Positions 29,802 through 37,473 of a DNA stretch of 64,000 nt are shown piece after piece; within the stretch, counting starts at the first letter, position 1; every line of letters starts with the position of its first letter. The notes beneath the pieces were generated by a model. The model was not told where the DNA came from. It made no database searches and saw only the letters and a list, made by a program, of their open reading frames with translations. This DNA comes from Candidatus Heimdallarchaeota archaeon. Its GTDB lineage: Archaea > Asgardarchaeota > Heimdallarchaeia > Hodarchaeales > Hodarchaeaceae. Where the stretch lies: the NCBI GenBank assembly GCA_020353515.1, contig CP070695.1, positions 4,439,248-4,503,247 of the forward strand. The letters run 5' to 3'. A program made the translations under genes and the position numbers.

Positions 29802-30917
29802 ATGAAAACAGCTCTTAGTCAATCCCCTTTCATAGATATAAAGAGAAATTATCTTGTTTTTATGGAACAGACATTAACTTGGTTTGATCCAAATCTAGTA
29901 AGGATTCTATTTACTTTACTCATGGAAGGGGAAGCTCTTGATCAAGATCAAATAATTGAGTTAACTGAGCTAAATAGGGCGTCTGTTTCAGCAACGCTTT
30001 CAAGATTAACAGATTCGACTAGTAAATTCTTAGTCCTTCAAACTCGGAAAAAAGGGCAACGTAAAAAGTATCAGTGTCCTCAAAAGCTGGCAGTATATTT
30101 TCGAACTCTTTTAATAGAAGGTTTAGAAGTGACTAAATTCAGTTTGGAACAAGTTCCTCTATTGATTCACAGATTAGACTCACTATCTTCTCAAAGTTCT
30201 GAAATTTTACGTTTAAGAAGATTTCTCAATGAATATTGGGAGCTATCTAATTATTTTCATTTCACCGTAACATATTTCCAAAATAATTTGGAAAAGTTTG
30301 TTAAGAATCCTGATTCAATTTCTCAATTAATTGGCAATCTTTCACTAAATGAAACTAAAGTTTTTAACTTTCCTGGTCCTAAATATAATTTAATAAGCGG
30401 GGATAGTCTTGAAAGAATCAAAAAGGATTTTCTTGAAGATCAAGCTGCAAGTCAATCCTCAAGTGTTGGTAAGAAGAAAGAACTTGTAATGATAGGTTTA
30501 TTATTTTTTGTGGAAGAAAAACCACTCACACAAGATTATATAATTAGAATCACTGGTTATAGTCGTTCAACTGTTTCAGTGACGCTAAAAACACTCATTC
30601 GACTTAATATCCTTCAGGTAATTAAAAAGCGTAAAGATAGAAGAAAATTTTACCAATTAAAATATACTTTGACTGAAAACTTGTTCAACACTGTTAAACA
30701 GTTCCGGTATATATTTTCCAATGCTAAAGAAATCATCCAAGTTCAATTTCAATCATATCTCGAAAAATTTGAAGAGAATGGAGAAAAAGAAAAGTTATCA
30801 ACATTTTTAGAGGAAAATATCCGTTTTTTTGAGTTATTTGAAGATTATACTAATGCTTGTACCTATATATTAGAGGAATTTTTATCAAAACATGAACCCT
30901 CAAACTTAGATCTATAG
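29802..30917 (+). CDS. Tandem GbsR/MarR-like double wHTH regulator
   Basis: Two units LDQDQIIELTELNRASVSATL...KGQRKKY and LTQDYIIRITGYSRSTVSVTL...KDRRKFY; divergent from ABC operon. Confidence 0.8.
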   Translation: MKTALSQSPFIDIKRNYLVFMEQTLTWFDPNLVRILFTLLMEGEALDQDQIIELTELNRASVSATLSRLTDSTSKFLVLQTRKKGQRKKYQCPQKLAVYFRTLLIEGLEVTKFSLEQVPLLIHRLDSLSSQSSEILRLRRFLNEYWELSNYFHFTVTYFQNNLEKFVKNPDSISQLIGNLSLNETKVFNFPGPKYNLISGDSLERIKKDFLEDQAASQSSSVGKKKELVMIGLLFFVEEKPLTQDYIIRITGYSRSTVSVTLKTLIRLNILQVIKKRKDRRKFYQLKYTLTENLFNTVKQFRYIFSNAKEIIQVQFQSYLEKFEENGEKEKLSTFLEENIRFFELFEDYTNACTYILEEFLSKHEPSNLDL

Positions 30918-31881: not shown

Positions 31882-32460
31882 TCACCATATTTTGGGAATT
31901 AAGCGATAAGGGACTTTTTTCATATATTCATTATAGTTTAAAAGATCCTTCAACAACATTTCTTCTTCTTTACGGATCCGAAAGACTAACAAAAAGGGTA
32001 TTGGTACCGCCAAGAATATGGATACTAACGAACCAAGTGTAATTGGCGTACTAAAAGCCAGAAGTATAAAACTCACGTACATTGGATGTCGTATGATTCC
32101 ATATGGTCCAATCGTAATTAATAAGTGATTTTCATGTATTATTAGACCCTTTGAAGAGTAAGAATTCGCTCTCATGACCCAGAAATTAATAATGTATGTG
32201 AGTGCAAGCCCTAAAAACCCGATTATCCTAATTAAACTCTTTAATTGTGTCCATTGGAATTTATAATCAAATCCTGGCAGAATTATCAATTGAAAAAATA
32301 AAAGACCGAAAATAACTAGGAAAATATTGTCAGCTTTGCTAGTAGACAGTTTTTTACGTTTTCTCAGCGTCGATAGATCCTTGATAATGAAGTAAATAGT
32401 CATAGTGATGTAGCATTGCTCATTTTCGATTTGAATAAGTTGGTTTGGATACTCTCTCAC
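31882..32460 (-). CDS. Isoprenylcysteine carboxylmethyltransferase/PEMT family protein (N-terminus uncertain, possibly truncated)
   Basis: LITIGPYGIIRHPMY, RIRKEEEML, Y.EYMKKVPYRLIPKIW. Confidence 0.82.
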   Translation of the reverse strand: MREYPNQLIQIENEQCYITMTIYFIIKDLSTLRKRKKLSTSKADNIFLVIFGLLFFQLIILPGFDYKFQWTQLKSLIRIIGFLGLALTYIINFWVMRANSYSSKGLIIHENHLLITIGPYGIIRHPMYVSFILLAFSTPITLGSLVSIFLAVPIPFLLVFRIRKEEEMLLKDLLNYNEYMKKVPYRLIPKIW

Positions 32461-32640: not shown

Positions 32641-34206
32641 TTGAGGAATATGTCAAGGTCAATTGAATTTGAAAGGTCGGAAACACTTTATCTTTTCTTT
32701 TCTTATGATCAAGAGGATTTAATTCAAGAATTTGGGAGGATTGGACTTACTCCGAAGACATATGAGGATACTCCTGTTACTAGGACTTTATACTTAGGAG
32801 CCACTGTTGGTATGAGGCCTGGGGTATCTATTAAGGTCAGATCATATTCTCCAGATTGGGCAAAAAACGTTTATCATATAACTCCTGATTCAGAATTCGA
32901 TTTATTAGAGATTAAATTAACCACTGGGCAAGCGACTATTTCTAGCAGTTTAATAGATTCTCAAGATGAAAGCAGTGATCTTGTTTTCTCCTTTCAGCGT
33001 TCTCTAGATGACGCTTTACTTAAAAGACGACCCCGTCTGAAAAGAAAGTCTCGCTTAATGAAAGCCAAAAACCCTAACTTTCCTTTTGAAGGGAAAAATT
33101 CGAATAAAATAACATTCAAGCAAGTAATTCAAGTTTTAACAAGTTCTAGTGAGCTAGATGAATTTTTAAATCCAAAGCTGCTCAATAATCTTAATGGTAA
33201 GGTTAGACCATTATATGGTAAAACGATCCTTCCATTCATAGTTACGCAGTATGGTCGAATTCATTTTGTCCCACAAGAAGATGCTGGAGAATGGAAGGAT
33301 GTAGTTAGAGTAACGATTGATCCAGGTGTTGAATTTTACAATTTAATTCAGAAAGATCCTGAAACTTTTGTAGATAAACCAGAGATGATCGCAGAGTTTT
33401 TGATGAAAGAGAAACATTCCCGTTTAGAATTAAAAATAGATCCAACAGCTTTAGAACAGTATCCTAAATTTAAAAATGATTTAAAAGCAATCTTTAAAAA
33501 ATATGGAGTAATGAACAGTATCTCAAAGAAATGGACTGGTTTAAATGCAACTACAGATCATTATATAGCCCAACAAAATCTTTGGTGTGAAAGAGAGAAT
33601 AGATATTGTACTTTCCCTGTTCATCGATCATGGTACCGTTTTGGTAGTCCAAGACTAATCTTTTCTAAGCTAGTAAACCCCTCTGAGAACTTCGTACCAT
33701 ATGCAAATGATCTCAAAGTCCTGATAAAAAATGTTCACAGCGTTGATGCAGTTACCCATGCGGATCAAGAATTCCATGTTTCTTTACAGGCATCTCGGCT
33801 TATTTTTAATTTACCTCCAGAAATTCAACCTTATGAAGATAATAACTCTAAATTAAATGTCATTCGAGAAAAGAAATCTATTCGAGATATACAACTCTAT
33901 TCAAAAAAGCAACTAGAGAAATTAACAGAAGAATTCCCAATGGATATTATAGGACATTCATATTACCGCAGTTTTGGAGGTCTGATTTGTTCTGAAAACA
34001 CCAATCGGATATATAAATTCTCGATCGAAAGGAAACGCACAATGATTGATCGACAATTGAAAGCAAAATTTTATTGTAAGTTACGATATTTAGGCTCCAA
34101 ATTCAGATTGCTTCAAGATGATGAAGAGGAGATTGTCTCTGATTTTAAGACTTTTTACGATAAATTCAACGATCATTTCTCCCGGCCAATTGAGCTCTAT
34201 CTATAA
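32641..34206 (+). CDS. VTC-like triphosphate tunnel metalloenzyme (TTM) domain plus a second, degenerate CYTH-like domain
   Basis: Ordered motifs ERSE..Y, TRTLYL, KVRSY, LEIK, KSR, P..VTQYGR, RVTID, LELK, ISKK match the VTC motif order; likely start ATG 32650. Confidence 0.68.
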   Translation: MRNMSRSIEFERSETLYLFFSYDQEDLIQEFGRIGLTPKTYEDTPVTRTLYLGATVGMRPGVSIKVRSYSPDWAKNVYHITPDSEFDLLEIKLTTGQATISSSLIDSQDESSDLVFSFQRSLDDALLKRRPRLKRKSRLMKAKNPNFPFEGKNSNKITFKQVIQVLTSSSELDEFLNPKLLNNLNGKVRPLYGKTILPFIVTQYGRIHFVPQEDAGEWKDVVRVTIDPGVEFYNLIQKDPETFVDKPEMIAEFLMKEKHSRLELKIDPTALEQYPKFKNDLKAIFKKYGVMNSISKKWTGLNATTDHYIAQQNLWCERENRYCTFPVHRSWYRFGSPRLIFSKLVNPSENFVPYANDLKVLIKNVHSVDAVTHADQEFHVSLQASRLIFNLPPEIQPYEDNNSKLNVIREKKSIRDIQLYSKKQLEKLTEEFPMDIIGHSYYRSFGGLICSENTNRIYKFSIERKRTMIDRQLKAKFYCKLRYLGSKFRLLQDDEEEIVSDFKTFYDKFNDHFSRPIELYL

Positions 34207-34267
34207 TTTTCTCGCACTTTACTAAATTCAAACATAACCAGTGATTTAAAGACTAAGTGGATCTTCA

Positions 34268-34924
34268 ATGTGGGAATGGCGTTTTTTTTGTGACTTAGCG
34301 AGTGCCTCTTATTTTTTTACTAATCAAACAGATTTGGAATCAGCAATTAACTCAGAAGATCATGAGATACGTTTTGATAGGTATGTGAATCTGCGTACTC
34401 CAGAATTAGGTTTAAAATTTCGAAACATTAGAAATAATGTTAGAAAAGCATTACTTGAGCTAAAAGTCTTGTTTCAGACAAACCAATGGAAAGCGGAATT
34501 TTGGGAAAAACCAATAAGAAGATACACATTTACTCATCCAGGTAGAGAAGTAATCCCAACTATTCTCCATGAAGAATCAAACAAACTTTACCCAGAATTA
34601 TCAAAAAAAATCAATTGGATTCTTGACCATATTTCAAGTAAGGAGTTAGAATTCACTACTATTAAGAAAAAACGCAAAATACTTCATCTATATGATCCTA
34701 ACAAAGTTGTTAAGTCTAAATTTCAGATCCCCAAAGCGTCCACAAGAATTGAACAAACAGTGGTCGAATTTAATCAAACAACATGGAAGACGATCTCAAT
34801 ACAATCTTATAATGATCAAACAATCAAAGGAATCCTTGATAACCTTGCGATAGATGAGCGATACATTATTTCAGGTTATCCAGGTTTTTTAATAGGACAA
34901 TCCACAACTAATAATAATCTTTAA
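34268..34924 (+). CDS. CYTH-like (TTM superfamily) protein
   Basis: WEWRFF, DRYV, GLKFR, LELK, E.W.K, IKKKR, EQT, W.TISI, GYP.FL. Confidence 0.7.
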   Translation: MWEWRFFCDLASASYFFTNQTDLESAINSEDHEIRFDRYVNLRTPELGLKFRNIRNNVRKALLELKVLFQTNQWKAEFWEKPIRRYTFTHPGREVIPTILHEESNKLYPELSKKINWILDHISSKELEFTTIKKKRKILHLYDPNKVVKSKFQIPKASTRIEQTVVEFNQTTWKTISIQSYNDQTIKGILDNLAIDERYIISGYPGFLIGQSTTNNNL

Positions 34925-36146
34925 CTTCGATAACCGATGGATCAATCTTCAAATCTTGGATTAACGTCCTTTGCTTTGTATCTATTTCAATTCGTTCTAA
35001 GCTTGGTAATTCTGATAATTCTTCTGGAATTTCTTTAAGTGGATTATGCCGTAATCCTAAGACACGCAATTTTTGACATTTGTGAATATTTTCTGGTAAT
35101 TGGGTGATGTTGTTTGAGTTTAAGTATAGAAATTCAAGGTTCTCTAACTTATTAACATCAAAGGAAAAATCTTCTATTTCATTGTGTGAAATCCAAGCTT
35201 CACGTAAATTGGTCATATTTTCCAAACTCGGTAAAATTTTTATGTCATTGTGGCTTAAATCGAGTTTTTCTAATTTTATTAACTTTGAAAATGATTCTGG
35301 AATTTCTGTTAAGAAGTTATTATAACCTCCAAAATCTTTAAGAGATAAAATATCACCTATTCCATCTGGTAACTCTCTTAACCTGTTACACTCTAATTCC
35401 AGACGTCTTAAAACCTTAAATTCTCCAATATTATCTGGTAATGTTTCCAAGTAATTATCTCGGATATCTAATCTTTCTAACTTTTCAATCTTAACTATAG
35501 ATCTGGGAAGTTCAGCTATTCTATTCTTTTGTATGTTTAAATAATTTAATCTAGGAAACCGTGTCATATCTTCAAAAAGACGCGAGAATCTATTTGTGCG
35601 CAGAATCAGTTTTTCTAAGCCCACAAGTCCACTAAGATTTTCTGGTACTTCTGTCAAAAAATTTCGTCGAACATCAAAAATTTCCAGTTTGGTTAAACGA
35701 TTAAGATTTTCAGGTAATCTTGTCAATTGATTTCTGCCTACTGCTAGTTTCATTAAATTCGTGCAATTGCATATACTCTCTGGAAGAATTGACAGGTTAT
35801 TCCTTCGAATTTCTAGGTGTTCTAACTTTTCCAAATTACCAATTGATTCTGGTAATTCAATAAGCTGATTACGATTAAGATCAAGCCGAGTTAGAGTGCG
35901 AAGATCTCCTATATTATCAGGTAGTGTTTCTAATTTGTTCTCTCTTAGATTTAAGCGTTCCAAATGCTTAAGTTCAGAAATTGATTCAGGGATTTGAGTC
36001 AGTCCAAGACTCCTCAAATTTAGCAATACAATCTTATCCTTATCGAAAACTGTATTACCTCTACTTAACAGTTGATTAACTGAATACTCACGAAATTCAA
36101 AATGAAACTCATCAATTATTTGATTCAAAACTTCCAGTTCACTCAT
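34908..36146 (-). CDS. Leucine-rich repeat protein (~15 repeats of 23 aa)
   Basis: LxxLxLxxNxLxxLPxxIxxL repeats; no other domain. Confidence 0.95.
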   Translation of the reverse strand: MSELEVLNQIIDEFHFEFREYSVNQLLSRGNTVFDKDKIVLLNLRSLGLTQIPESISELKHLERLNLRENKLETLPDNIGDLRTLTRLDLNRNQLIELPESIGNLEKLEHLEIRRNNLSILPESICNCTNLMKLAVGRNQLTRLPENLNRLTKLEIFDVRRNFLTEVPENLSGLVGLEKLILRTNRFSRLFEDMTRFPRLNYLNIQKNRIAELPRSIVKIEKLERLDIRDNYLETLPDNIGEFKVLRRLELECNRLRELPDGIGDILSLKDFGGYNNFLTEIPESFSKLIKLEKLDLSHNDIKILPSLENMTNLREAWISHNEIEDFSFDVNKLENLEFLYLNSNNITQLPENIHKCQKLRVLGLRHNPLKEIPEELSELPSLERIEIDTKQRTLIQDLKIDPSVIEVKDYY

Positions 36147-37473
36147 AGACCCTCACTCCTTTGGCTTTTAAGTCACTTATTATCGGCATGGATTGGTCAG
36201 ATAAGGGATTATTCTTGACGTTGATCATCTTGAGGTTGGGTAAATCAAGTAACGATTTGGGAAGATCTCTGAAATTATTGTTATCTAAGGCTAGACCTTC
36301 AAGTTTTGTCAATTTGTCTATATCAGAGGGAAGATCGGATATTTGATTATTGGAAACCCAGATCTCTCTTAATATTGGTAGATCACATACAGCTGGTGGA
36401 ATGTCCTTAAGTTGATTTTTCGAAAGAAATAGGAATTCTAGGTTTCGTAAATTCTTAATATGATCTGGAACATCCGTTAATTGATTGTTATTATAATTTA
36501 ATTCTTTTAAGTTATCAATTGATGTAATTGATGGAGAGATCTCCGTGATTTCATTCTCTTCTAGGGTTAAAATTCGTAACAGCTTTAAATTCTTCAACGA
36601 ATCGGGAAGATCTTTTAGCTTATTATCTGAAAAGCTTAATTCAGTTAGTAGCTTTAGTTCCCCCACTCCTTCAGATATTGAGGTAAGATGATTCGCAATG
36701 AAGTCTAATCTTGACATGTTTTTTAATTGCCAAAGACTCTCAGGTAGAGAAGTTAACTGGTTTGACCTAAAATCTATCCTATTCAAATTTATTAAATTCC
36801 CTAGTGCGTCAGGTAATTCTATTAATTGGTTCTTTTGTAAATTAAAAGTAACTAATCCTTGAAGATTTTCAATTTCATCAGGGATTTTGGAAATGTGATT
36901 ATTCCCTAAATCTAATTCTATAAGATTGACTAATTTTGTTACTGACAGTGGTATCGTGGAAAGACCCATGTTACGTAAACTGAGTAATTCCAAACGGTCT
37001 AACCTATCAATATCCTCGGGAAAGGATTCTATGGATAAATAATTATTGTTTAACAAAAGCTGTCTGAGATTAGAGATCGGTAAGATTTCTTTTGGAAAAG
37101 AAGTAAATAAACATTCACGTAAATCTAATCGCCGTAGCCTTTGAAGTTTGGCAATTTCTTTGGGTAATGATTTTATTGGATTCCAACGTAAATCCAAGCG
37201 TTTTAAATTGATTAGCTTTGTAGTACCAAGAGGTAGGGATTTAAGGTCATTGGTACGTAAATCTAATCTATTTAATTGTTTAAATAACCCAATTTCATAT
37301 CCTAGTTCCTTGATATGTAACTCCCTGAGATCTAATTTTTTGAAAAAATCAATAACATATACTGTTCTTCGCCGATTTAATATTTCATCAATTTGAATAT
37401 CCCCTGGAAGCTTTTGAAGTAAGTTTTTGAGATTTTCAAGTTCAAAGCTTTCAGTCATTAATGTTTCCATCAC
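36139..37473 (-). CDS. Leucine-rich repeat protein (~17 repeats)
   Basis: Same repeat class; stop overlaps next start (ATGAGTGA). Confidence 0.95.
   Translation of the reverse strand: MMETLMTESFELENLKNLLQKLPGDIQIDEILNRRRTVYVIDFFKKLDLRELHIKELGYEIGLFKQLNRLDLRTNDLKSLPLGTTKLINLKRLDLRWNPIKSLPKEIAKLQRLRRLDLRECLFTSFPKEILPISNLRQLLLNNNYLSIESFPEDIDRLDRLELLSLRNMGLSTIPLSVTKLVNLIELDLGNNHISKIPDEIENLQGLVTFNLQKNQLIELPDALGNLINLNRIDFRSNQLTSLPESLWQLKNMSRLDFIANHLTSISEGVGELKLLTELSFSDNKLKDLPDSLKNLKLLRILTLEENEITEISPSITSIDNLKELNYNNNQLTDVPDHIKNLRNLEFLFLSKNQLKDIPPAVCDLPILREIWVSNNQISDLPSDIDKLTKLEGLALDNNNFRDLPKSLLDLPNLKMINVKNNPLSDQSMPIISDLKAKGVRVYE

Follow-up and report, generated by a model that had tools for sequence, protein, structure and literature searches.

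Two adjacent genes of an Asgard archaeon, here called A and B, are described together with two leucine-rich-repeat (LRR) genes, LRR1 and LRR2, which converge on them (Table 1). The genes lie in a stretch of 64,000 nucleotides (the window) from Candidatus Heimdallarchaeota archaeon (GenBank assembly GCA_020353515.1, contig CP070695.1, positions 4,439,248 to 4,503,247 of the forward strand), which belongs to a closed 4.94 Mb Hodarchaeales genome of 96% completeness. An earlier note, made from the sequence alone, had read A as a VTC-like protein with two tunnel domains and B as a second, CYTH-type tunnel protein, and had proposed that the two genes form an operon for the synthesis and turnover of polyphosphate (polyP). 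This proposal was followed up computationally.

Table 1. Coordinates of the genes, domains and motifs within the window
Feature	Position	Strand	Description or basis
Gene A, open reading frame (ORF)	32641..34206	+	521 aa from TTG; 518 aa from ATG 32650 (32650..34206); two-domain, soluble
A N-domain, Vtc4-like triphosphate tunnel	32641..33549, residues 1-303	+	Foldseek, VIA, PF09359 in relatives, residue map to 3g3q
Strand 1 motif ERSETLY (R12, E14, L16, Y17)	32671..32691	+	Matches Vtc4 R196-x-T198-x-K200-Y201
S295-K296-K297	33523..33531	+	Equivalent to Vtc4 S457-K458
A C-domain, rare beta-rich, possibly a second, degenerate tunnel-like barrel	33550..34203, residues 304-521	+	Profile search, ESM features, conserved residues
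Gene B	34268..34924	+	218 aa; stand-alone protein of triphosphate tunnel/CYTH fold, unnamed family, first strand MWEWR (xxExR)
LRR1, 412 aa leucine-rich-repeat protein	34908..36146	-	13 LRR motifs; convergent on B, 3' overlap with B of 17 nt
LRR2, 444 aa leucine-rich-repeat protein	36139..37473	-	14 LRR motifs; overlaps LRR1 by 8 nt

Residues of protein A are numbered here from the TTG codon, and the true start of the gene is probably the ATG, because the database record holds 518 aa. Gene B follows on the same strand after 61 nt. Both genes and all the motifs listed in the earlier note were found, in the order given. The N-terminal half of A carries, once each, TRTLYL (residues 47-52), KVRSY (65-69), LEIK (89-92), KSR (136-138), QYGR (203-206), RVTID (223-227), LELK (262-265) and SKK (295-297), and its C-terminal half carries ERENRY (317-322), YYRSF (441-445), TNRIYKFSIE (454-463) and CKLRYLG (479-485). 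Protein B contains, again once each, WEWRFF (2-7), DRY (37-39), KFR (50-52), LELK (63-66), KKR (134-136) and EQT (162-164). The charged residues of these motifs are nearly all invariant across relatives of 24-37% (A) or 23-29% (B) identity, and the motifs are therefore not chance strings. All four genes are under purifying selection, with ratios of nonsynonymous to synonymous substitution rates (dN/dS, window against genome G060) of 0.12 for A, 0.37 for B, 0.09 for LRR1 and 0.12 for LRR2. Gene B thus evolves faster than gene A, and within A the ratio was 0.07 for the N-domain, indicating strong purifying selection, and 0.19 for the C-domain.

Neither A nor B has a hydrophobic or transmembrane (TM) segment, in agreement with the earlier note, and neither window protein matches any Pfam or NCBIfam family directly. 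Close relatives of A (75-90% identical) are unnamed Hodarchaeales proteins, and more distant full-length relatives (33-37% identical) are recognised by the Pfam VTC profile. In the gap between the two genes (34207-34267), a TTTAAA box was observed 22-27 nt upstream of the ATG of B, and B may for this reason be transcribed from a promoter of its own, as a leaderless mRNA, in the window clade. The 61-nt spacing is unlike that of other lineages, in which A and B abut or overlap.

The fold of A was predicted with an AlphaFold2 (AF2) model of the full-length protein built on an 18-sequence alignment. The per-residue confidence score (predicted local distance difference test, pLDDT) was 70-88 across most of residues 20-290. 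A Foldseek search of this model against the PDB returned Vtc4, Vtc3 or Vtc2 at all of ranks 1-10 (E about 1e-6). Superposition with VIA placed residues 12-300 of the model on residues 196-478 of Vtc4 (Z 12.7, root mean square deviation 3.3, 215 residues), and generic CYTH enzymes reached Z 8.9 at most. The model thus supports the assignment of the N-terminal half of A as a Vtc4-like triphosphate tunnel metalloenzyme (TTM) domain, with a tunnel fold closest to Vtc4/Vtc3/Vtc2, as the earlier note had suggested. The Pfam VTC family (PF09359) was matched by 9 of the 18 full-length family members, the best of them at 31.9 bits (cut-off 23, E 1.3e-7, profile positions 101-213). The window protein gave no match to it, so that its VTC membership rests on transitive homology and structure.

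Searching the PDB chains directly with the sequences of A and B and with the family profiles brought up no TTM, and the residue map from A to Vtc4 was therefore routed via canonical Asgard VTC proteins, i.e. proteins of ~250 aa from other genomes. The profile of these proteins aligns to Vtc4 (PDB 3g3q) with an E-value of 7e-7, and hhalign placed it on the A family collinearly over 217 columns, with every motif in register. A hidden Markov model built from eight canonical Asgard VTC proteins barely detected the A family and missed the window protein. The resulting map is collinear over the whole N-domain and agrees with the ranges of the structural superposition. It pairs R12 of A with R196 of Vtc4, position 16 with K200, K65/R67 with R264/R266, K92 with K281, Y204/R206 with Y359/R361, R223 with R373, E263 with the Mn-binding E426, and S295/K296 with S457/K458. 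In yeast, these residues are ligands of triphosphate and Mn2+, and each is required for a normal polyP level (10.1101/2023.01.27.525886).

The window protein retains eight of the nine triphosphate/Mn ligands of Vtc4, the exception being the Lys200 equivalent, and apart from position 16 the mapped ligands are invariant in the 17 aligned family members. Among them, K458 is the sole ligand that differs between active Vtc4 and inactive Vtc2/Vtc3 (10.1101/2023.01.27.525886). Its equivalent stands in S295-K296, a pair that is invariant in 17/17 aligned members, bacterial ones included, and that aligns to S233-K234 of canonical VTC ('pkfSKFihG' in Vtc4, 'kiSKFasG' in canonical VTC and 'iSKKWtG' in A). 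For strand 1, 'FVRQTTKYW' of Vtc4 aligns to 'FnRFEiKY' of canonical VTC. At the Lys200 position, the window protein and every close relative (75-100% identical) have Leu16; every other lineage has Arg there, with strand 1 reading ERSE[LI]RY or ERREDRF. The yeast K200A mutation reduces polyP (10.1101/2023.01.27.525886), and with Leu in place of this lysine the A protein of the window clade may be a weakened or altered enzyme. The earlier note had named missing Vtc4-equivalent Lys/Arg residues as evidence against its proposal; K458 and the others proved to be kept, and only Lys200 has been replaced.

Protein B gave the clearer structural model (AF2 pLDDT 87.6, predicted template modelling score 0.83). 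Foldseek matched it to YgiF (E 8e-6), and VIA gave Z 13.7 for YgiF (189 of 218 residues), 12.7 for 2gfg and 11.4 for 1yem, the top matches all being members of the TTM superfamily. With a model of this quality, we are confident in the prediction that B is a complete eight-stranded TTM/CYTH tunnel barrel. No match was found to the Pfam CYTH family (PF01928) at E up to 1, the same profile that matches two canonical CYTH genes elsewhere in the genome, and none to NCBIfam or to PDB sequences. The first strand of B (M1-W2-E3-W4-R5) is of the form xxExR, not ExExK, throughout the alignment of 19 sequences: the start Met, or Leu or Lys, stands where the first Glu would be, and the Lys is replaced by Arg. 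The description of B as a CYTH protein was thus borne out for the TTM/CYTH fold, and not for Pfam CYTH membership or the ExExK motif. Conserved residues alternate along the strands of B (E3/R5, R35/D37/Y39, K50/R52, E64/K66, K81, K134/R136, E162/T164), and E3, R5, R35, D37, Y39, K50, R52, E64, K66, K81, K134 and E162 are invariant. The S-K motif of VTC is absent from B. The family was found in Asgard archaea only, adjoining A in every locus examined; a search for fused forms of B (441-2000 aa) found none, which is weak evidence.

The C-domain of A is more difficult to place. The AF2 model has pLDDT below 50 at residues 289-319 and 359-444, and its better-modelled elements are a strand (321-326), a helix (336-345), three long strands (445-486) and a C-terminal helix (495-514). 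The order of these elements in the low-confidence model is compatible with a TTM barrel and no proof of one. When 1.84 billion representative proteins were searched with a profile built from 12 C-halves, only 9 were retrieved. All were either proteins of 520-550 aa with the domain at their C-terminus or fragments, and the domain is accordingly known only in fusion with the N-domain of A. One relative of A (P0012, 324 aa, on a 77 kb contig) ends exactly at the boundary between the two domains; it may be a split gene or a frameshift, and supports a domain border near residue 312.

Pfam searches of 12 C-domains at E up to 10 returned noise only, and a PDB sequence search with the C-domain gave no match. 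Comparison of the N-half, the C-half and B by hhalign found no match in any pair; the method has no power on the C-half, because it missed the N-half against B although both are TTM domains by structure. By ESM protein language model features, the nearest named clusters to the C-domain were those of mRNA_triPase, with scores of 0.87 for the window protein and 0.91 (181/256 features) for its divergent relative P0011. Messenger RNA triphosphatases are TTM enzymes. The invariant residues of the C-domain are E317, R443, S444, G446, R456, K459, E463 and G485. Taken together, it is fairly probable that the C-domain is a degenerate TTM-like barrel. The second tunnel proposed by the earlier note is thus not established, since the model is poor at 359-444 and the profile searches were empty, and the one hint in its favour is the language-model likeness to mRNA triphosphatases. 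The further statement that this half lacks the acidic metal ligands went too far, as E317 and E463 are invariant.

Full-length A was found in 12 of 400 Asgard genomes, from five families, and in 3 of the 22 genomes of its own genus. In 9 of the 11 other genomes the gene immediately after A is B (27-29% identical), and in many cases the two overlap or are within 10 nt of each other. Tandem LRR genes converge on this block in the window and likewise in 9 of 11 other genomes, one contig ending after the first LRR gene. G076 lacks B and keeps the LRR pair, and G279 is the sole genome with B but without the pair. At the other loci (L027-L037), the proximal LRR gene finds its best match, among all ORFs of the window genome, in LRR1 and the distal one in LRR2; of the 4658 ORFs with 100 aa or more in that genome, just 5 carry at least 8 LRR motifs. 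The positional counterparts of LRR1 match Pfam LRR_8, LRR_14 and LRR_4. Because the LRR pair recurs at these loci with one-to-one best matches, the conserved unit consists of A, B, LRR1 and LRR2, and the two-gene operon first proposed was too small in that it missed the LRR partnership. An 'arginine ladder' on the LRR proteins that would bind polyP was also considered and found unsupported, the basic positions 3 and 7 of the repeat being matched by an acidic position 5 in every ortholog.

Outside this unit the surroundings change. The upstream neighbours of A vary by lineage; in the window they include a protein with two winged-helix (MarR-like) domains (29802-30917) and an ICMT/PEMT-like membrane methyltransferase (31882-32460), neither of which is kept next to A in other genomes. 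Beyond the four genes, DUF498, NUDIX or Ras/Roc-like GTPase genes are found, depending on the lineage, the GTPase standing after the LRR pair in G131 and G130. No DUF4956, CotH or SPX gene was present in the window neighbourhood or at the 11 related loci, as the earlier note had observed for the window.

Further observations concern the history of the block. G076 belongs to the genus of the window, and its locus (L029) holds an A that is 37% identical with Arg16, no B, and an LRR1 that is 40% identical. Two very different versions of the block are thus present in a single genus, which suggests either that its genes were transferred together or that they diverged long ago. A third LRR gene in the window genome (C1:406686-408074) is a close paralog of LRR2, and its 88% identity to the G060 ortholog of LRR2, across 366 residues, suggests a recent duplication of LRR2 away from the block. 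Full-length relatives of A were also found in two bacterial metagenome-assembled genomes (MAGs), at 7974-9464 of L045 (a Vicinamibacteria MAG) and at 2263-3924 of L046. They are 25% identical, have both domains and all key residues, and stand with no B or LRR gene alongside.

The link to polyP comes from gene context. In G279 (L035, 4643-9576, minus strand), A and B are continued on the same strand by two abutting genes for a CYTH-CHAD protein (541 aa; CHAD PF05235, E 3e-25) and a PPK2 (265 aa; E 3e-64). CHAD domains bind polyP granules, and PPK2 uses polyP. A link of A-B to polyP is therefore plausible, and to this extent the polyP operon of the earlier note may stand, with one genome as its basis. 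A survey of known polyP synthesis genes adds to the picture. PPK1 (PF02503) was found in none of the 400 Asgard genomes and PPK2 in two of them, G279 and G049, the latter gene not adjoining an A homolog. The window genome was searched and yielded no PPK1, no PPK2 above the cut-off, no Ppx-GppA, no CHAD and no canonical VTC. Canonical VTC genes occur in ~29 of the 400 genomes, always in CotH-VTC-DUF4956 triads (loci L015-L026). Given the absence of PPK1 and the rarity of PPK2 in these genomes, VTC-type tunnel proteins are the only candidates of a known kind for polyP synthesis in Asgard archaea. The A family and canonical VTC share no genome (12 against ~29 of 400); mutual exclusion of the two is not significant, as an overlap of ~0.9 is expected by chance.

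Based on these results, we tentatively propose that A and B are the enzymatic core of an Asgard module (A, B, LRR1-LRR2) that handles triphosphate or polyP, most likely by making cytosolic polyP. We regard this as close to an even call, leaning slightly to the side of doubt. Like Vtc4, protein A would bind ATP-Mn2+ in the tunnel of its N-domain and would add the gamma-phosphate to the lengthening polymer. The polyP product would go to the cytosol, since A has no membrane partner. The yeast complex has its active Vtc4 barrel stacked head to tail with the inactive barrel of Vtc3 (10.1101/2023.01.27.525886); the C-domain of A would likewise be a second, catalytically degenerate barrel stacked on the active one, like Vtc3/Vtc2 on Vtc4. 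The part of B would be to prime, cap or shorten the chain, or to hydrolyse tripolyphosphate (PPPi), and LRR1 and LRR2 would be scaffolds or regulators.

Several observations weigh against this proposal. We know of no activity measured for any prokaryotic VTC-domain protein or for the A family. The window protein does not match PF09359, and the hhalign alignment between canonical VTC and the A family is weak when taken alone (E 0.044, probability 1.2%). Leu16 replaces the Lys200 equivalent throughout the window clade, and the C-domain fold is not established by the low-confidence model. The family is patchy, and A is for that reason not a housekeeping polyP synthase. Two genomes, G076 and G048, have A without an adjacent B. 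Conservation among the neighbours is highest for the LRR proteins, for which no connection with polyP is known; the isoelectric points of the LRR orthologs range from 5.3 to 9.5 and their concave faces are not net basic. Finally, the gene link to polyP rests on G279.

Four alternatives were weighed, each of which fits the evidence less well than the VTC-type module. The strongest is that the four genes form a signalling device that acts on another triphosphate substrate. A and B might, for example, have the activity of a class-IV-like nucleotide cyclase, of an RNA 5'-triphosphatase, or of an enzyme for PPPi or nucleoside tri/tetraphosphates; the LRR pair, joined in some genomes by a small GTPase encoded nearby, would read the output or control the activity. 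TTM enzymes use many triphosphates, and the fold alone leaves the chemistry open, with cyclases, ThTPase, Cet1 and YgiF all among the fold matches. The LRR pair as the most conserved neighbour and the Ras/Roc-like GTPase after it in G131 and G130 would suit such a device. The same is true of the mRNA triphosphatases as nearest language-model neighbours of the C-domain, and of L16, which suggests that Vtc4 chemistry is not strictly kept in the window clade. However, A clearly resembles Vtc4/2/3 (Z 12.7) more closely than cyclases or Cet1 (Z at most 8.9) and keeps the polymerase-specific S-K458 pair. The ExExK Glu pair of TTM hydrolases and cyclases is absent from both A and B, and the operon partners in G279 are polyP proteins. 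We consider signalling unlikely, and it still deserves to be kept in mind.

A second alternative is degradation, in which A, B or both would hydrolyse tripolyphosphate or short polyP chains in the manner of YgiF, NeuTTM and AtTTM3. The best structural matches of B are indeed PPPi-hydrolysing TTMs (YgiF 5a60, HpAC1 6yp4, AtTTM3), A has lost the Lys200 equivalent, and the pair in G279 adjoins a YgiF-like CYTH-CHAD protein and PPK2, both consumers of polyP or PPPi. On the other hand, the window genome already has its two canonical CYTH genes, and no known polyP synthase occurs in these genomes, so that there is no source of substrate unless A supplies it. Both A and B are without the first ExExK Glu, which binds metal in TTM hydrolases, whereas A keeps the K458 equivalent. 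A purely degradative role appears improbable.

It is also conceivable that the barrels are non-enzymatic binding or scaffold modules, Med18/Med20-like or polyanion readers, which assemble with the LRR proteins. Three barrel-like domains and two LRR scaffolds do resemble a complex, the C-domain has no clear catalytic motif, and Med18 and Med20 are in the fold-match lists of both A and B at Z about 8. These Mediator head subunits match the two models because their barrels broadly resemble the TTM fold. The scores of TTM enzymes are much higher, however (Z 12.7-13.7 against about 8.6), and the invariant positions are the charged tunnel residues of active TTMs, metal-binding Glu included, which makes a scaffold without catalysis highly doubtful. 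An anti-virus defence system, in which an LRR sensor would act with a nucleotide or polyP effector, is less credible still: the patchy distribution, the joint divergence of the block, seen even between G076 and the window in one genus, and the fact that LRR proteins are common immune sensors would be in keeping with it, but PADLOC gave no significant match for the five proteins tested, the block holds no STAND NTPase, nuclease or other effector, and its flanks are housekeeping genes that differ between lineages.

The VTC-type module can be carried one step further. A together with B would then be a membrane-independent VTC-type polymerase made of three tunnel barrels, of which one is active, one degenerate and fused, and one separate, and would serve as the sole polyP synthase in Asgard archaea without PPK1 and PPK2. 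Its pairing of active and inactive barrels would be a counterpart, or even a relative, of the eukaryotic Vtc4-Vtc2/3 heterodimer, with the LRR pair regulating in place of SPX. We offer this extended proposal as a speculation that is rather unlikely to hold in full.

Polyphosphate is universal. The VTC complex is treated as the eukaryotic route to it and PPK1/PPK2 as the prokaryotic routes (e.g. PMC13318637). Asgard archaea are the closest archaeal relatives of eukaryotes, and VTC-type proteins are their only candidates of a known kind for polyP synthesis. The A family is a soluble VTC form that could be expressed; most of its members carry all the Vtc4 ligands, and the natural Lys200-to-Leu variant of the window clade provides a built-in comparison. 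If A is active, VTC chemistry would need no membrane channel, and the finding would bear on the origin of the eukaryotic VTC enzyme and of the pairing of active and inactive barrels. The conserved LRR partnership could point to a new kind of regulation. NCBI names some relatives of A 'VTC domain-containing protein', and in the literature we found no paper describing the A family or VTC proteins in Asgard archaea. New here are the synteny of A-B with the LRR genes in Asgard archaea, the link to polyP genes in G279 and the absence of PPK1 and rarity of PPK2 in the 400 genomes.

Among known systems, Cet1-type mRNA triphosphatases (PF02940) are the nearest named ESM clusters to the C-domain of A. 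They differ from it in that there is no sequence or profile match and the two-Glu metal motifs are absent, E317 and E463 being the only invariant Glu residues. With the CYTH/TTM hydrolases (E. coli YgiF, Bacillus halodurans BH2851, AtTTM3; PF01928), B shares the eight-stranded tunnel along its entire length (Z 13.7, 12.7 and 11.1), but it has no PF01928 match, lacks the first ExExK Glu and has Arg for the Lys.

The prokaryotic CotH-VTC-DUF4956 operons (PF09359, PF16316 and PF08757) share with A a VTC-type TTM catalytic domain, and both kinds occur in Asgard archaea. The order of motifs is common to canonical VTC and A (R-x-E-x-K/R-Y, K/R-x-R, E-x-K, Y-x-R, R-x-T-x-D, E-x-K, S-K). The canonical Asgard proteins have ~250 aa, match PF09359 with E-values of 1e-31 to 1e-45 and are encoded between CotH and DUF4956 genes. 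A, in contrast, has 520-570 aa with the added C-domain, a weak Pfam match or none, and B and LRR genes as neighbours; flanking by CotH/DUF4956 was seen at none of the 12 A-family loci.

The comparison with yeast Vtc4 and its partners Vtc3/Vtc2 (3g3q, 3g3o, 7ytj, 8i6v) is the closest in structure. Direct sequence similarity between Vtc4 and A is undetectable, and the extra domains of A have no homology to Vtc2/3 at a detectable level. A has no SPX domain, no Vtc1-type TM domain and no membrane partner, and is therefore read as soluble; Lys200 of Vtc4 is replaced by Leu in the window protein and by Arg in relatives outside its clade. The N-domain nevertheless keeps the equivalents of R196, R264, R266, K281, Y359, R361, R373, E426, S457 and K458, and, as in the yeast complex, a barrel-like partner may accompany the active barrel of A, either the putative barrel of the C-domain or B.

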